Source of the DNA: a virus | IMG/VR virus record: IMGVR_UViG_3300047323_000675 | Length of the DNA: 64,000 bases | Direction: 5' to 3' (one strand) | Position numbers and translations under genes: made by a program | The notes under the pieces: generated by a model | Databases searched by the model: none | What the model was told of the DNA's origin: nothing | What the model saw: the letters and a program-made list of their open reading frames with translations, nothing else | Shown here: positions 20,779 to 25,879 of the stretch, piece by piece | Position numbering within the stretch: the first letter of the stretch is position 1 | Layout: each line of letters begins with the position of its first letter

Positions 20779-21759
20779 TTAGAATTGTGATTGTTCTTGG
20801 ATATAGCTTTTAACTATTTCTTTATAAGGTTCTCTTGTTAATAAAGTTCCTCTAGAAAATGGCTTGTTTTGTATCTCTGACACTTCCTTAGCTAATATAA
20901 TAGCTAATTCATTTGAACTTTTAAACTTTATATAATTATTCCTATAAGATTCAATTATTTTTTTAACGATATCTAATCTTTCATGCATTTTCTCAGATTT
21001 ATATTCGTGAACAGAAGAATATTTTTTAGGAGATGGAGGAATATCATTATTCTCATGAATCCAATCATATCTTTTTCTTTGTTTTATAAACCAAATTGTG
21101 CTTTTATGAACATTAAATTCTTTTGAGAGTTCAGTTAATGTTTTATTTTCGGCATAAAAAATATATAAAGCTTGTTCTTTTGTTAGTTTTCTCTGAATAG
21201 TATTATTTTCTAAATGACCAAATTGGCCACTATTAGGCTTTCTTAAAATATTAATATTTTCTTTTAATCGCTTTTTACCAGCACATGATTTACTGCAAAA
21301 AGCCTCTTTACAAGTTCTTTTTAGTTTATTGTCTCTAGAAAATTCTTTAGTGCAGAAGCCACATACATAAGTATATTTAGGCTTGTAGTCATCATAAAGG
21401 CTCTGAAAATTTTTAGTGTTATATTTCTGTGAAACATAATCAAATGCATACTTTAAATCTTCTTTCCTCATTACTCTAACTTTATAGCCTAATGATTCAG
21501 CTAGAGCAGTTTTTTTGTTAACACTATCTTCTTTTTCATAGCCCTTAGGCTCAATAATTGTTATTCCATCAGCTAATAAAAAATCTGGACAATAAACTAA
21601 TTTATCTTTTTTAAGTTGACCAGGAAAACGAGTAAATTTAATACCATGATCTAAAGCATGGATTGCCCAACATAATTCATAGGTTGAACCACAATATAAA
21701 CCTTTGTAATGTCCTTGCTTACTTCTTCCTGACTTTACTCTATAACCTCCACCTGGCAT
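20779..21759 (-). CDS. Free-standing PD-(D/E)xK (TnsA-N-like) endonuclease with Zn-finger and HTH, homing-endonuclease-like
   Basis: STYE...YCPDF...IIEPKGY; CGFC..CSKSC; LTELSKEFNVHKSTIWFI HTH. Confidence 0.65.
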   Translation of the reverse strand: MPGGGYRVKSGRSKQGHYKGLYCGSTYELCWAIHALDHGIKFTRFPGQLKKDKLVYCPDFLLADGITIIEPKGYEKEDSVNKKTALAESLGYKVRVMRKEDLKYAFDYVSQKYNTKNFQSLYDDYKPKYTYVCGFCTKEFSRDNKLKRTCKEAFCSKSCAGKKRLKENINILRKPNSGQFGHLENNTIQRKLTKEQALYIFYAENKTLTELSKEFNVHKSTIWFIKQRKRYDWIHENNDIPPSPKKYSSVHEYKSEKMHERLDIVKKIIESYRNNYIKFKSSNELAIILAKEVSEIQNKPFSRGTLLTREPYKEIVKSYIQEQSQF

Positions 21760-21902: not shown

Positions 21903-22067
21903 ATGAAATTTGAAATATATAAAGATAAAAATGGAGAATGGCGTTGGAGAATTAAAGCAGCTAATGGAAAAATAATAGCTGATTCATCAGAGGGATATAA
22001 AAATAAACAAGATGCAATAAATATGATAAATGCTATTGTTGCAATTAAAGAATATAATGAAATATAA
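21903..22067 (+). CDS. YegP/DUF1508 family protein (not in ORF track)
   Basis: Hand translation MKFEIYKDKNGEWRWRIKAANGKIIADSSEGYKNKQDAINMINAIVAIKEYNEI; AAGGAG SD. Confidence 0.85.
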   Translation: MKFEIYKDKNGEWRWRIKAANGKIIADSSEGYKNKQDAINMINAIVAIKEYNEI

Positions 22068-22086
22068 TTTTTAAGCTCGAAAAAGA

Positions 22087-22110
22087 AAAGCCTACATTTC
22101 TGTAGGCTTT
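22087..22110. terminator. Intrinsic terminator between convergent genes
   Basis: AAAGCCTACA-TTTC-TGTAGGCTTT. Confidence 0.8.
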
Positions 22111-22118
22111 GTCATCGT

Positions 22119-22346
22119 TTAAACCATTTGTTCTGCTTTAGCAGTATTAATATTGTCAACATGTTTTTTTATCCATCTCATGAAAAGAATTGCTTTGTCA
22201 TCTGCTCCGAAAGAAGCATCCCCTGTGTCTGATATTGGAACTGGAAACTCAAATCCGCACTCAGTTTTGTACCATAATTCACTTTGTTGATAGCGAATAA
22301 ATTGAACTCTTTTCCCGTTGTTGACCATCTCTTTTATGCTGCTCAT
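22119..22346 (-). CDS. Small conserved-looking phage-type hypothetical protein
   Basis: 75 aa, AAGGAG SD; FEFPVPISDTGDASF..DDKAILFMRWIKK. Confidence 0.75.
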   Translation of the reverse strand: MSSIKEMVNNGKRVQFIRYQQSELWYKTECGFEFPVPISDTGDASFGADDKAILFMRWIKKHVDNINTAKAEQMV

Positions 22347-22420
22347 TATATTTCTCCTTTTATTTATAATAATGATTAATTGGTGGTAAATTAATTATAA
22401 GAAGCCACCACTTCTTATTC

Positions 22421-22495
22421 TGGCATCGCGTACGAGAATCGAACTCGTATCATTTGGTTGAAGGCCAAATATTCTCACCATTAAACTAACGCGAT
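22421..22495 (-). tRNA. tRNA-Glu(UUC), atypical C33
   Basis: Acceptor ATCGCGT/ACGCGAT, G73, CCA; anticodon arm TTTGG-CC TTC AA-CCAAA. Confidence 0.8.
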
Positions 22496-22507
22496 ATTAA
22501 ATCTATT

Positions 22508-22601
22508 AAGAGTTTGCGGAGTCGAACCGCTTCTCTGCCTGCAAGCAGCGCATGAAGCCGACTAGTGATTGCAGTCACCAATACGCACATGCTGAACTCT
22601 T
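22508..22601 (-). ncRNA. tRNA-like RNA with expanded D-loop and shrunken anticodon arm, no CCA
   Basis: AAGAGTT/AACTCTT acceptor, GCATG/CATGC D-stem enclosing an extra hairpin, CTGC-TTGCAG-GCAG, GCGG-TTCGACT-CCGC T-arm. Confidence 0.55.
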
Positions 22602-22606
22602 TAACT

Positions 22607-22682
22607 TGGTGTCTCTAGAGGGATTTGAACCCTACATCTCCGGTGGGATTACGCGGCGATTTAACCATTAATCTATAGAGAC
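22607..22682 (-). tRNA. tRNA with degenerate anticodon arm (undetermined/pseudo)
   Basis: GTCTCTA/TAGAGAC acceptor, intact D and T arms, CCA; anticodon arm CCGCG-TAATCCC-ACCGG has only 3 bp. Confidence 0.7.
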
Positions 22683-22688
22683 AAAACT

Positions 22689-22772
22689 TGGTGGATGAGG
22701 TTGGATTTGAACCAACGAACCCGAAGGAAATGATTTACAGTCATCGCGCTTTAGCCACTTGCATACTCATCC
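22689..22772 (-). tRNA. tRNA-Tyr(GUA)
   Basis: GGATGAG/CTCATCC, A73, CCA; GATGA-CT GTA AA-TCATT; variable arm. Confidence 0.95.
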
Positions 22773-22798
22773 ATTAAAACTATTTACTGATTAAATCT

Positions 22799-22876
22799 TG
22801 GTATCCAGTATGGGGGTTGAACCCATTTTCTCGGATTGAGAATCCGATTTCCTAACCTACCGTAGAAGAACTGGAT
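22799..22876 (-). tRNA. tRNA-Glu(CUC)
   Basis: ATCCAGT/ACTGGAT, CCA; TCGGA-TT CTC AA-TCCGA. Confidence 0.85.
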
Positions 22877-22900
22877 ATAGAACTATTTACTGCATAATTT

Positions 22901-22985
22901 TGGTGGATCAGGTAGGATTCGAACCTACTCATCCGAAGAAACGGGGTTACAGCCCATCACACCTCTCCAACTGTGTCGCTGATCC
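22901..22985 (-). tRNA. tRNA-Tyr(GUA)
   Basis: GGATCAG/CTGATCC, A73, CCA; ATGGG-CT GTA AC-CCCGT; variable arm. Confidence 0.9.
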
Positions 22986-23020
22986 AAATTTAAAAATTCT
23001 TTCAAAAAAATACTTAAATT

Positions 23021-23102
23021 TGGTGGATGAGGTAGGGATCGAACCTACTTGCCGAAGCCACGGAGTTACAGTCCGCTGCCCTACCATTAGAGCATCTCAT
23101 CC
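23021..23102 (-). tRNA. tRNA-Tyr(GUA)
   Basis: GGATGAG/CTCATCC, CCA; GCGGA-CT GTA AC-TCCGT; variable arm GC-TTCG-GC. Confidence 0.95.
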
Positions 23103-23107
23103 AAAAA

Positions 23108-23216
23108 TTAAGTGTATTTGCGTAGACGGAAAATCCGTTCTTCGGGATGGGTTAAGGCTCGTAGCCCCGATTCTGCAAATCCCCATTTACTAGCCAGGAG
23201 ATAAACTCACACTTAA
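23108..23216 (-). ncRNA. Unidentified structured RNA within the tRNA array
   Basis: GC-rich 109 nt closed by TTAAGTGT/ACACTTAA with several internal helices; preceded by the same leader motif as the tRNAs. Confidence 0.5.
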
Positions 23217-23235
23217 AAACTTTACTACTACAATT

Positions 23236-23310
23236 TGGTATCGTGTATGGGATTCGAACCCATGTCCAAGGAGTGAAAGTCCAAGTATCCTTCCAGTAGA
23301 TGAACACGAT
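23236..23310 (-). tRNA. tRNA-Glu(UUC), weak anticodon stem
   Basis: ATCGTGT/ACACGAT, CCA; TTGGA-CT TTC AC-TCCTT (two U-U mismatches). Confidence 0.75.
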
Positions 23311-23336
23311 ATAAAACTATTTTTATTACTTAAAAT

Positions 23337-23414
23337 TGGTGTCCCCAACGGGATTTGAACCCGTGTTTTCGGATTGAAAGTCCGACGATCTCGACCAAAC
23401 TAATCTATGAGGAC
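23337..23414 (-). tRNA. tRNA-Glu(UUC)
   Basis: GTCCTCA/TGGGGAC, CCA; TCGGA-CT TTC AA-TCCGA. Confidence 0.9.
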
Positions 23415-23440
23415 GATGAAACTTTTTACTACTTTTAAAC

Positions 23441-23525
23441 TGGTGGAGATGGATGGATTTGAACCACCGCGCCTTTTGGAAACTGATTTACAGTCAGTCG
23501 CATTCGACCCCTCTGCCACATCTCC
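23441..23525 (-). tRNA. tRNA-Tyr(GUA)
   Basis: GGAGATG/CATCTCC, CCA; ACTGA-CT GTA AA-TCAGT; variable arm. Confidence 0.95.
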
Positions 23526-23548
23526 ATTAAAACTTTTACTACTTAATT

Positions 23549-23625
23549 TGGCACACCCAACGAGGATTGAACTCGTATTTTCGGATTGAAAGTCCGATGT
23601 TCTCGACCAATTAAACTATGGGTGT
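23549..23625 (-). tRNA. tRNA-Glu(UUC)
   Basis: ACACCCA/TGGGTGT, G73, CCA; TCGGA-CT TTC AA-TCCGA. Confidence 0.9.
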
Positions 23626-23647
23626 AAAACTTTTTACTACATTATAT

Positions 23648-23723
23648 TGGAGCACCTAACGGGGATCGAACCCGTATTTTCAGATTGAAAGTCTGACTAT
23701 CTAACCAATTAATATATAGGTGC
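23648..23723 (-). tRNA. tRNA-Glu(UUC)
   Basis: GCACCTA/TAGGTGC, U73, CCA; TCAGA-CT TTC AA-TCTGA. Confidence 0.9.
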
Positions 23724-23729
23724 TTTGTT

Positions 23730-23805
23730 TGGTATGGGTAACGGGATTTGAACCCGTGTCTGCGGATTGAAAGTCCGCTGATCTATCCAACTAATCTATA
23801 CCCAT
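23730..23805 (-). tRNA. tRNA-Glu(UUC)
   Basis: ATGGGTA/TACCCAT, CCA; GCGGA-CT TTC AA-TCCGC. Confidence 0.9.
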
Positions 23806-23853
23806 GTAAATATTTACAAATTTAAAAACTCTTTATTTAAAAGTGTTTAAATT

Positions 23854-23937
23854 TGGCGTTCCGTGGGGGATTCGAACCCCAGTCTTTCGACATCACCTTG
23901 AAAGGGTGAGGACGGTTGCCGGCCGTCAACACGGAAC
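23854..23937 (-). tRNA. Non-canonical 8/4 tRNA with UUC anticodon and long variable arm (allo-tRNA-like)
   Basis: GTTCCGTG/CACGGAAC 8-bp acceptor, GGGG/CCCC 4-bp T-stem, 5-bp D-stem, TCACC-CT TTC AA-GGTGA, GTC-GAAA-GAC V-arm, G73, CCA. Confidence 0.85.
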
Positions 23938-23942
23938 ATATT

Positions 23943-24026
23943 TGGTGGATGAGGTTGGATTTGAACCAACGAACCCGAAGGAAATGATTTACAGTCATCG
24001 CGCTTTAGCCACTTGCATACTCATCC
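23943..24026 (-). tRNA. tRNA-Tyr(GUA), identical to 22689..22772
   Basis: 84/84 nt identical by direct comparison. Confidence 0.95.
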
Positions 24027-24053
24027 ATATTCACAACATTTACTACTTTAATT

Positions 24054-24139
24054 TGGTGGGGCAGGTAGGAATCGAACCTACAAGCCGTAAGGCGACCGCT
24101 TTACAGGCGGCTGATTTCACCACACTTACCATCTACCCC
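24054..24139 (-). tRNA. tRNA-Tyr(GUA), first gene of the array
   Basis: GGGGTAG/CTGCCCC, A73, CCA; GCCGC-CT GTA AA-GCGGT; variable arm. Confidence 0.9.
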
Positions 24140-24166
24140 AAATTTGCTACTTTTACTACGCTCAAT

Positions 24167-24207
24167 TTTTAAAGAACAATACTACTCATGTTGTCGTTTT
24201 GACAACA
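24167..24207 (-). promoter_or_regulatory. boxB-like hairpin plus boxA-like antitermination site
   Basis: TGTTGTC-AAAAC-GACAACA then TGTTCTTTAAAA (E. coli rrn boxA is TGCTCTTTAACA). Confidence 0.55.
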
Positions 24208-24210
24208 CTA

Positions 24211-24246
24211 CAAAAACAAAAAAGGCACCAATTTCTCGGTGCCTTT
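24211..24246 (-). terminator. Attenuator terminator (3:4 hairpin)
   Basis: AAAGGCACC-GAGAAATT-GGTGCCTTT followed by TTTGTTTTTG, between leader ORF and tRNA array. Confidence 0.85.
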
Positions 24247-24278
24247 GATTTACTTCTTACTTACTTGTCAGAGTGAAC

Positions 24279-24413
24279 TCAGTTAATATAAACTTGGGTT
24301 TCCTTGTTTACATTAACCTTTGCATCAACACTATCTGAACGAGCAAAAGTAAATGCGACACCGTTGGTGTTCATTTCCTCTCGTTCATAATAATAAGTGT
24401 TCATGCGGTTCAT
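24279..24413 (-). CDS. Leader peptide with Tyr/Glu codon run (not in ORF track)
   Basis: MNRMNTYYYEREEMNTNGVAFTFARSDSVDAKVNVNKETQVYIN; codons TAT TAT TAT GAA CGA GAG GAA; GAGAG SD 7 nt upstream. Confidence 0.8.
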   Translation of the reverse strand: MNRMNTYYYEREEMNTNGVAFTFARSDSVDAKVNVNKETQVYIN

Positions 24414-24460
24414 GTTATTTCTCTCAAATAAATAAGTTTGTCTAAATCTTCAATGTAATC

Positions 24461-24489
24461 ATTATGCCTCAGTTGCAATTCCGTGTCAA
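24461..24489 (-). promoter_or_regulatory. Near-consensus sigma70 promoter of the leader/tRNA operon
   Basis: TTGACA-17 nt-CATAAT, AT-rich UP-like region upstream. Confidence 0.85.
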
Positions 24490-24605
24490 TAGGTTTCTTC
24501 AAAATATTTTTATTGTTTCAAAAAAACAACACATGACACTTGTTGCTCAACTGCATTCAATGAAGTGAATTATATATTAAATTTCAATTAGGTGTCAAAC
24601 AATAT

Positions 24606-24854
24606 TTATAATTTACTATGTTTGGAATATACATGATGAGAAAAGCCAGCAAACATAAAAAATGAGATAACAGCCAAGCAAACACATATAAGAATTACTA
24701 CTGCTTGAAAAAAAGAATAATTCCATGTTTTCATCATTATTACTAAAACCATTAAAATTGATATAGCACAATATCCCATAACCATAAGCATAATTCCAAT
24801 TGGACATAAAGCGAATAATTTTAATTCATACCAAAAATTTTTTAGTTTATTCAT
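24606..24854 (-). CDS. Small membrane protein (2 TM)
   Basis: 82 aa, hydrophobic. Confidence 0.65.
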   Translation of the reverse strand: MNKLKNFWYELKLFALCPIGIMLMVMGYCAISILMVLVIMMKTWNYSFFQAVVILICVCLAVISFFMFAGFSHHVYSKHSKL

Positions 24855-24994: not shown

Positions 24995-25879
24995 ATGAAA
25001 ATCAAAGAAATATTAACCTCAGCAGAAGATAAGTCTGTGAACTTTATCTATGACAATTGGATAGAGGCTAGATTTGTAAGAAGAGAAGCTGATTACTTCA
25101 TTATTTATCTTTCATCGCATGATGGTTGTAATAAGGCATGTCGTTTCTGCCATTTAACTCAAACAAAACAAACTTCTTTCAATCGGGTAACAATAGAAGA
25201 ATATCTAATGCAAGCTGAAGATGTCTTGAATTACTACGACTCAATTAAAAATAACCAAGGTGCTGCAAAAAGGGTTAACTTTAATTTTATGGCTAGAGGA
25301 GAAGCCCTAGCTAACCAAGTTATTTTGGAGAATGCTAAAGAATTATTTTCTAGTTTGGAAAATTTAGCATTAAAAAGAGGTTTAAGTGCAAGATTTAATA
25401 TTTCAACAATTATGCCAATGGAAATAGAATCAAAAGATTTGGCTGATATTTTCAAGGATGTTACTCAAGATTATGGGATTTATTATTCACTATATAGTGT
25501 CGATGATAAATTTAGGAAGCGCTGGCTACCGAAAGCTTTAAATTATGAAGTAGCACTAAAAAAATTAGAAGAATTACAGCTAAAAAGAGGAGCAGATATT
25601 GCCTTCCATTGGGCATTTATTGAAGGTGAAAATGATAGTAAAGAAGATTTAGATGAATTAAAGAATGTCTTGTCTAATTACAACATTAAGGCCAAGTATA
25701 ATTTAGTAAGATATAATCCCTATAGTTCCAATCAAGGGAAAGAACCAACAGAGGATGTTTTGCAGTATAATTTTAATGAATTAAATGAATTTTTTAAAAG
25801 TCCTGCATCTAGAATTGTTCCTCGTGTTGGATTTGATGTTAAAGCCTCATGTGGGATGTTTGTAATCAATAATAATTGA
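24995..25879 (+). CDS. RlmN/Cfr-like radical SAM protein
   Basis: GCNKACRFC cluster motif, FMARGEALAN (RlmN MGMGEPL.N), NLVRYNP, C-terminal DVKASCGMF (RlmN DIDAACGQL). Confidence 0.85.
   Translation: MKIKEILTSAEDKSVNFIYDNWIEARFVRREADYFIIYLSSHDGCNKACRFCHLTQTKQTSFNRVTIEEYLMQAEDVLNYYDSIKNNQGAAKRVNFNFMARGEALANQVILENAKELFSSLENLALKRGLSARFNISTIMPMEIESKDLADIFKDVTQDYGIYYSLYSVDDKFRKRWLPKALNYEVALKKLEELQLKRGADIAFHWAFIEGENDSKEDLDELKNVLSNYNIKAKYNLVRYNPYSSNQGKEPTEDVLQYNFNELNEFFKSPASRIVPRVGFDVKASCGMFVINNN

Follow-up and report, generated by a model that had tools for sequence, protein, structure and literature searches.

The DNA analysed here, referred to as the window, is the full 64,000-nucleotide (nt) stretch of the IMG/VR virus record IMGVR_UViG_3300047323_000675, and the subject of this study is a leader region within it that stands ahead of an operon of tRNA genes for tyrosine and glutamate. 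Read in the direction of transcription, the locus consists of two promoters (P1 and P2), a 44-codon open reading frame (ORF) with three Tyr and three Glu codons among its codons 7–13, an intrinsic terminator, a second hairpin, 14 tRNA genes and a gene for a protein of 75 amino acids (aa), all of them on the minus strand, as are all elements below unless a strand is given (Table 1). A first-pass annotation had proposed that this leader is an attenuator that senses Tyr and Glu decoding, and each feature on which that proposal drew was confirmed at its position: P2, the leader ORF with its run of Tyr and Glu codons, the terminator between the ORF and the tRNAs, and every helix sequence that had been quoted. 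Absent from its list were P1, a second and perfect promoter, and two outer helices and a 13-base-pair (bp) hairpin that are present in the predicted fold. P1 and P2 are each followed by an identical initial motif, CATTGAA, and the interval between them (24490-24568, minus strand) holds a short hairpin and then a T-run (CAACA..TGTTG TTTTTTT); this arrangement may represent a duplicated promoter unit.

Table 1 Elements of the leader and of the tRNA operon, in transcriptional order
Feature	Position	Strand	Remarks
Promoter P1, TTGACA-18-TATAAT	24569..24598	-	12/12 consensus; kept in 5/7 versions
Promoter P2, TTGACA-17-CATAAT	24461..24489	-	11/12 consensus positions; both hexamers invariant in 7/7 versions
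5′ untranslated strands of the outer helices, predicted to pair with 24273-24247 and bury GAGAG	24421..24448	-	minimum-energy fold
Leader ORF, 44 codons, MNRMNTYYYEREEMNTNG...	24279..24413	-	ATG invariant; open in all versions
Segment 1, 5′ arm of the predicted long hairpin, holding the Tyr/Glu codons	24366..24406	-	helix list of the fold
Putative regulatory codons 7–13, TAT TAT TAT GAA CGA GAG GAA (YYYEREE)	24375..24395	-	invariant except GAA/GAG at codon 13
Segment 2, 3′ arm of the predicted long hairpin, holding CGGUGUC and AUUUACUUUU, able to pair with segment 3	24322..24362	-	folds
Predicted 13-bp hairpin in the 3′ part of the ORF, bringing segments 2 and 3 together	24281..24318	-	one compensatory pair, C-G to U-A
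Segment 3, AAGAAGUAAAU and terminator 5′ arm GGCACCG	24236..24259	-	duplex with segment 2
Intrinsic terminator (helix 3:4), 11-bp stem then U6-G-U5	24211..24246	-	stem 24246-24221, U-run to 24211; conserved in all versions
Hairpin GUUGUC-AAAAC-GACAAC then TGTTCTTTAAAAA	24166..24206	-	conserved in the alignment; just past the leader terminator
tRNA array, 14 diverged genes: 6 Tyr-GTA, 7 Glu-TTC, 1 Glu-CTC, all with encoded CCA	22421..24139	-	ARAGORN; most confirmed by Rfam
75-aa ORF closing the operon, phrog_20427	22119..22346	-	E 6e-32
Operon-end terminator	22087..22110	-	sequence scan

Relatives of the locus were found on metagenomic contigs through the neighbouring radical-SAM gene, the leader peptide and a pattern scan, and together with the window they give the leader in seven distinct versions, namely the window itself, L001 (= L004), L005 (= L006), L007, L008, L009 and L010. 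The pattern scan of metagenomes yielded only a copy identical to L001; pattern scans of the viral contig and genome contig collections gave no match, nor did a search of the viral contig collection for related loci with the neighbouring radical-SAM protein, and phage records have just single tRNAs in common with the region. The hexamers of P2, the ATG, the YYYEREE run and the terminator are found in all seven versions and, wherever the contig extends far enough, the leader is followed by Tyr/Glu tRNAs only (5–15 genes), so that the annotation's expectation of homologous arrays with a cognate-codon leader is borne out by every version. The surroundings vary among the relatives and include ankyrin genes, a gene for IF-3 and the radical-SAM gene; what stays together throughout is the set of leader, tRNAs and 75-aa gene, the last of which is present after the array in L001, L005, L006 and L007.

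As the annotation had claimed from the readable anticodons, the 14 ARAGORN calls of the array comprise Tyr and Glu anticodons only, with both TTC and CTC among the latter. Inside the array (24176 to 22400, minus strand) there is no promoter-like site that matches at least 9 of 12 positions. Between the terminator and the array one candidate tRNA promoter (TTGTCA-18-TATTGT, 24205-24176, 9/12) was considered and rejected, because L005, L008 and L009 have not retained its -10 element. These versions do keep the hairpin that overlaps the candidate and the element TGTTCTTTAAAAA, which in L005 takes the form CGCTCTTTAAAAA. Given that no conserved promoter was found either between the terminator and the array or inside the array, the tRNAs seem to depend on read-through from the leader. 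The hairpin followed by TGTTCTTTAAAAA resembles the boxB/boxA antitermination signals of rrn leaders, in which a boxA of sequence TGCTCTTTAACAA lies downstream of the promoters and binds NusB/NusE. Several peculiarities of the array were seen in passing. A tRNA-like gene at 22610-22682 (minus strand), recognised by Rfam (46 bits) with no ARAGORN call, may be a fifteenth, non-canonical member, and the 84-nt tRNA that ARAGORN calls at 23854-23937 (minus strand; UUC anticodon, 8-bp acceptor stem, 4-bp T stem, long variable arm) falls below the Rfam tRNA threshold. The spacers carry a recurring motif, (A)GTAGTAAA(A)GT (for example at 24141-24160, 24027-24045 and 23626-23640, minus strand), which resembles AAGTAAAT of segment 3 and may serve in processing or be left over from the duplication of a unit; the 133-nt spacer at 23103-23235 folds no better than shuffles (z -0.03).

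The run of Tyr and Glu codons in the leader ORF is exceptional in the window. Only one of its 73,254 six-frame positions, that of the leader, has a 7-aa stretch that includes three or more Tyr together with three or more Glu, and the analytic chance of such a run is ~2e-4 per 44-aa ORF at the genome frequencies of the two residues (Tyr 4.6%, Glu 7.2%). The frame stays open for 40–44 codons in all seven versions, and the other two frames are each interrupted by 3–6 stops in that interval; 44 open codons would arise at the leader by chance with a probability of ~0.02. The Shine-Dalgarno (SD) sequence claimed by the annotation was recovered in part: the motif GAGAG does lie ~9 nt upstream of the ATG, but its predicted pairing with the anti-SD is weak (-2.9 kcal/mol). 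Since this is still stronger than the median of -0.9 kcal/mol for the long genes of the window, which mostly have A-rich leaders, the ribosome-binding stretch is typical for this genome, and the GAGAG/AGGA stretch as a whole matches or exceeds those of most genes in the window. The leader ORF is probably translated, as judged from its sequence, and several assemblies list it as a gene. Neither a family match nor a match in phage records was found for the 44-aa peptide, which a protein index places on contigs of 2.23 and 2.22 Mb.

The leader is also predicted to be highly structured, with a minimum-energy fold of -79.3 kcal/mol over its whole length (z -7.75; no shuffle was equally stable). Helix 1:2, the first of three mutually exclusive helices in the annotation, is part of this fold, in which it forms the core of a 34-bp hairpin that alone reaches -29.2 kcal/mol (z -4.8). 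Helix 2:3 involves segment 3, which comprises the terminator 5′ arm and the 14 nt before it, and its duplex energy of -20.0 kcal/mol in the window was reached by 0 of 1000 shuffles; across the seven versions the 2:3 duplex ranges from -15.8 to -21.9 kcal/mol, compared with -11.8 to -16.6 kcal/mol for the terminator, and in each version at most 0.8% of segment-3 shuffles reach the duplex energy. Segment 3 differs by lineage (AAGAAGUAAAU..GGCACCG; AGUAAUAGUAAAU..GGCGCCG; AAGUAAACGC..GGCACCG; AAGUAGAU..GACACC) and in each case segment 2, itself invariant, retains strong complementarity to it, in agreement with the helix that the annotation had drawn. This antiterminator would occupy 7 of the 11 nt of the terminator 5′ arm, including the loop-proximal part where the terminator must nucleate. 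Its extension into the region after the stop codon is marginal (p 0.04–0.23), and the 5′ untranslated region (UTR) is complementary to that same region at p<=0.07 in six of the seven versions and at 0.15 in L007.

Comparison of the versions supports these helices. The long hairpin, the terminator and the 13-bp hairpin (which is deleted in L010) all appear in the RNAalifold consensus, with a single compensatory pair in each of them, and the covariation of the terminator is seen in L009, where GGCACC/GGUGCC has become GACACC/GGUGUC. The outer helices show exchanges of G-C to A-U and of GAGAG/CUCU to AGGAA/UUUCU. Nucleotide identity to the window is 93–100% in codons 1–29, 48–93% in the 5′ UTR and 54–80% in the 3′ part of the leader; contigs from three further metagenomes have zero differences at 24314-24418 and 9–19 elsewhere. 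Of the sequencing runs listed as containing this DNA, none is recorded as RNA. Within the conserved block, replacement changes (A20T, R25H, S26L, D30H/T) and silent ones are about equal in number; the C-terminus of the peptide is variable, through two deletions that preserve the frame and one premature stop. The pattern fits a stretch that serves as code and as alternative RNA structure at once.

The predicted switch was examined on truncated RNA, cut just before the terminator 3′ arm and folded with or without a ribosome mask on codons 7–13. When no mask was applied the terminator 5′ arm was unpaired in all seven versions; with codons 7–13 masked, it paired with CGGUGUC as the best fold in six of the seven. 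The exception was the window, in which the antiterminated fold lay 0.8–1.3 kcal/mol above the best fold and became the best fold once a second ribosome also covered the start region. Conserved leaders, covariation of the terminator, complementarity of segments 2 and 3 and these masked folds all support the attenuator proposed in the annotation, and on the strength of sequence and modelled structure we consider it likely that the leader is a ribosome-mediated transcription attenuator, governing read-through from two strong sigma-70-type promoters into an operon of Tyr and Glu tRNAs only.

From this arrangement we infer translation of the ORF, stalling, kinetic competition between folds, read-through and a physiological trigger, in the following order. 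RNA polymerase would transcribe the leader while a ribosome starts on the 44-codon ORF. If Tyr and Glu codons were decoded at normal speed, or if there were no translation, segment 1 would re-pair with segment 2 in the 34-bp hairpin; in this terminated state the 5′ UTR would pair with the region after the stop codon, terminator 3:4 would form and transcription would stop at ~24211. A ribosome at the stop codon would also cover the stretch immediately upstream of segment 3. Under a shortage of working Tyr- or Glu-tRNA, the ribosome would stall at codons 7–13 and cover segment 1, and the freed segment 2 (CGGUGUC...AUUUACUUUU) could pair with segment 3, around the 13-bp hairpin, before the terminator 3′ arm is made. 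The polymerase would then read through the boxB/boxA-like element into the 14 tRNAs and the 75-aa gene. The output would restore exactly those tRNAs whose shortage had stalled the ribosome, a negative feedback on decoding capacity that would work as an OR gate on two amino acids.

Several observations weigh against this reading. The annotation had predicted that the antiterminator should win when segment 1 is masked; in the full-length RNA this failed, as the terminator persisted at equilibrium in all versions, and the switch must therefore be kinetic. A kinetic choice between folds is also the basis of the trp attenuator. The outer 5′ UTR helix of the window competes with helix 2:3, and the ribosome-binding stretch is both weak in absolute terms and, in the predicted fold, buried inside a helix. 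Because shuffled leaders give the terminator 5′ arm some upstream partner in 10–31% of cases, pairing of that arm alone is weak evidence, and for this reason the duplex-shuffle test described above was used instead. Helix 2:3 itself shows one-sided variation only, with no double compensatory change, because segment 2 is invariant; with the codon run invariant at the nucleotide level, selection on codons and selection on RNA cannot be told apart, and the versions are related to each other rather than being seven independent trials.

Some of these same properties would be expected if the leader were a small RNA that is stable, structured and self-contained and ends at a terminator of its own, the ORF and its codon run being incidental and the tRNAs being transcribed through constitutive leak or with boxA-like help. 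The very strong fold (z -7.75), closed by pairing between the 5′ UTR and the 3′ end that hides the ribosome-binding stretch, would suit such an RNA, as would conservation at the nucleotide level without an excess of silent changes and a terminator that wins at equilibrium. Left unexplained are the placement of the sole YYYEREE-type run in 64 kb ahead of a Tyr/Glu-only array, the invariant ATG with a frame kept open through in-frame deletions, and the significant complementarity of segment 2 to the terminator 5′ arm, which tracks the lineages; we consider this explanation unlikely. Still less likely, in our view, is a ribosome-dependent attenuator of identical architecture that senses general translation stress (antibiotics or a global slow-down) through a stalling peptide, like the erm- and cat-type leaders, and not Tyr/Glu decoding. 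The peptide hardly varies over its first 29 residues, and a tRNA array of Anabaena is induced by translational stress (PMC8421152, PMC10272220), but under this explanation the match of the codon run to both tRNA identities would be a coincidence of ~1e-3, and the peptide tolerates the replacements listed above.

A ribosome-free switch, in which the long hairpin binds a protein or binds tRNA directly in the manner of a T-box, with anticodons reading UAU/GAA, strikes us as improbable. The hairpin is more invariant than pairing alone demands and the fold leaves a 4-nt bulge open within the Tyr codons, yet a conserved antiterminator bulge of the T-box kind was not seen, there would be no explanation for the start codon and the open frame, and a search of 22000-24700 gave no T-box match (RF00230) at E<=5 and no other Rfam family that covers the leader. 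Of the leader-type families, Phe_leader (RF01859) came closest and was rejected at 22.4 bits against a gathering threshold of 55 (E 1.2), and matches to RgsA and STnc40 were far below threshold. We hold it very improbable that the ORF is the gene of a functional microprotein of 44 aa, transcribed and terminated by signals of its own and without any part in tRNA control: the gene calls and the conserved N-terminal 30 residues would be in keeping with it, but selection on the peptide itself is disfavoured by replacement changes as frequent as silent ones and by the variable and truncated C-terminus, there is no family match, and the tRNAs would be left without a conserved promoter.

If the leader is an attenuator, its closest known counterparts are described members of the leader-peptide class. 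Like the enterobacterial attenuators (the thr leader for Thr and Ile, ilvGMEDA for Ile, Leu and Val, trpL, hisL and pheL), it has a short ORF with a run of putative regulatory codons, predicted exclusive helices 1:2, 2:3 and 3:4 with those codons in segment 1, and a terminator before the regulated genes; like the multivalent thr and ilvGMEDA leaders, it would sense more than one amino acid, in this case two. It differs in being longer (44 codons, ~240 nt), with additional outer helices in which the ribosome-binding stretch is predicted to be hidden, and no sequence or Rfam relationship to the enterobacterial leaders was found. The principal difference lies in the output, which in the enterobacterial operons consists of biosynthetic enzymes and here would be the cognate tRNAs themselves. 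Because the downstream genes are 14 tRNAs and a 75-aa ORF, and not the biosynthesis, transport or synthetase genes of all described members, we regard the leader as a variant of this class. The pheST (pheM) attenuator of E. coli, whose output is phenylalanyl-tRNA synthetase, provides feedback on the supply of charged tRNA. There too the output belongs to the decoding machinery of the sensed codon, as a synthetase in that case and as a tRNA array in this one. The annotation had stated that no attenuator driving its cognate tRNA array was known, and our full-text literature search likewise found no published leader-peptide attenuator that regulates its cognate tRNA genes.

Leader-peptide attenuation is textbook knowledge for amino-acid operons, and cognate tRNAs as the regulated genes would be new. 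If true, this reading would mean that decoding capacity for single codons can be gauged and corrected in cis, would explain how supernumerary tRNA arrays stay silent until needed, and would provide a compact, portable sensor of tRNA depletion. As the element is only ~400 nt long, with sigma-70 promoters and an intrinsic terminator, it would be directly testable in E. coli or in a reconstituted system. A long tRNA array that is inducible when translation is impaired is known from the trn operon of Anabaena sp. PCC 7120, which is under the repressor TrcR (PMC8421152, PMC10272220). That array is supernumerary and silent by default, as this one would be, but it serves many amino acids and is controlled by a protein repressor, whereas here the tRNAs are for Tyr and Glu and the control would be exerted by a cis-acting leader.

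The reading also links the locus to tRNA-cleaving phage defences and to the tRNA counter-measures of phages (PMC11555353, PMC13096335). tRNA-Tyr is a documented target of PtuAB/Septu, which phages escape by over-expressing or amplifying tRNA-Tyr and thereby rescuing translation after loss of the host tRNA-Tyr (PMC11555353, PMC13096335), and altered anticodon loops have been proposed as a means of evading tRNA-cleaving immunity (PMC10264068). The array resembles such counter-defence tRNAs in its extra Tyr copies (six here) and diverse anticodon loops: across the five loci compared, which hold 60 Tyr and Glu genes in all, the 25 Tyr genes have 15 distinct anticodon stem-loops and the Glu genes 21. 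Phage counter-defence tRNAs have been described with strong promoters or amplification and with no demand-sensing attenuator (PMC11555353, PMC13096335, PMC10264068). It is possible, though in our judgement doubtful, that the leader acts as a sensor of tRNA integrity, such that when a host nuclease (of Septu/PtuAB type for tRNA-Tyr, and another for tRNA-Glu) destroys these two tRNAs, stalling on YYYEREE releases diversified replacement Tyr and Glu tRNAs; this would be an inducible counter-defence of a very large, phage-like, AT-rich replicon, with the ribosome as its sensor. Given that the arrays are diversified and that tRNA-Tyr is a documented target, this is plausible but unproven; a limited literature search on tRNA-cleaving defences found no defence targeting tRNA-Glu. 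An equally open rationale is that the array supplies decoding of TAT and GAA for a replicon of 25% GC.

The wider window has a GC content of 25% and is filled with arrays of ankyrin and DUF285 paralogues, in long same-strand runs with 4-nt overlaps; it carries bacterial-type signals, including sigma-70 promoters, and genes typical of jumbo phages, namely the radical-SAM gene phrog_27142, phrog_20427 and a gene for an R2K ATP-grasp protein. The radical-SAM gene (24995-25879, plus strand; RlmN/Cfr-like, E 4e-105) is divergent from the leader and 44–49% identical to genes of CcrColossus, 201phi2-1 and Brevundimonas jumbo phages; it adjoins the leader in the window and in L001 and not in the other relatives. 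Just downstream of the operon lies a 326-aa ORF (20779-21759, minus strand), also present in L005 and L006, whose PHROG matches to HNH and other endonucleases (E 0.002–0.008) are too weak to call; a homing endonuclease beside an expanded tRNA-Tyr array would recall the SegB-driven amplification of tRNA-Tyr (PMC13096335), a parallel that would hang on this weak match. In the cultured jumbo phage GAP32, the tRNA region that carries a homologue of the 75-aa ORF has no codon-matched leaders that we could see. Homologues of this ORF with 53–60% identity occur in Rak2-like jumbo phages, and that of GAP32 lies directly after a tRNA-Arg gene, its record noting similarity to an Acidithiobacillus ferrooxidans protein; the product may be a small protein that accompanies arrays of tRNA genes.

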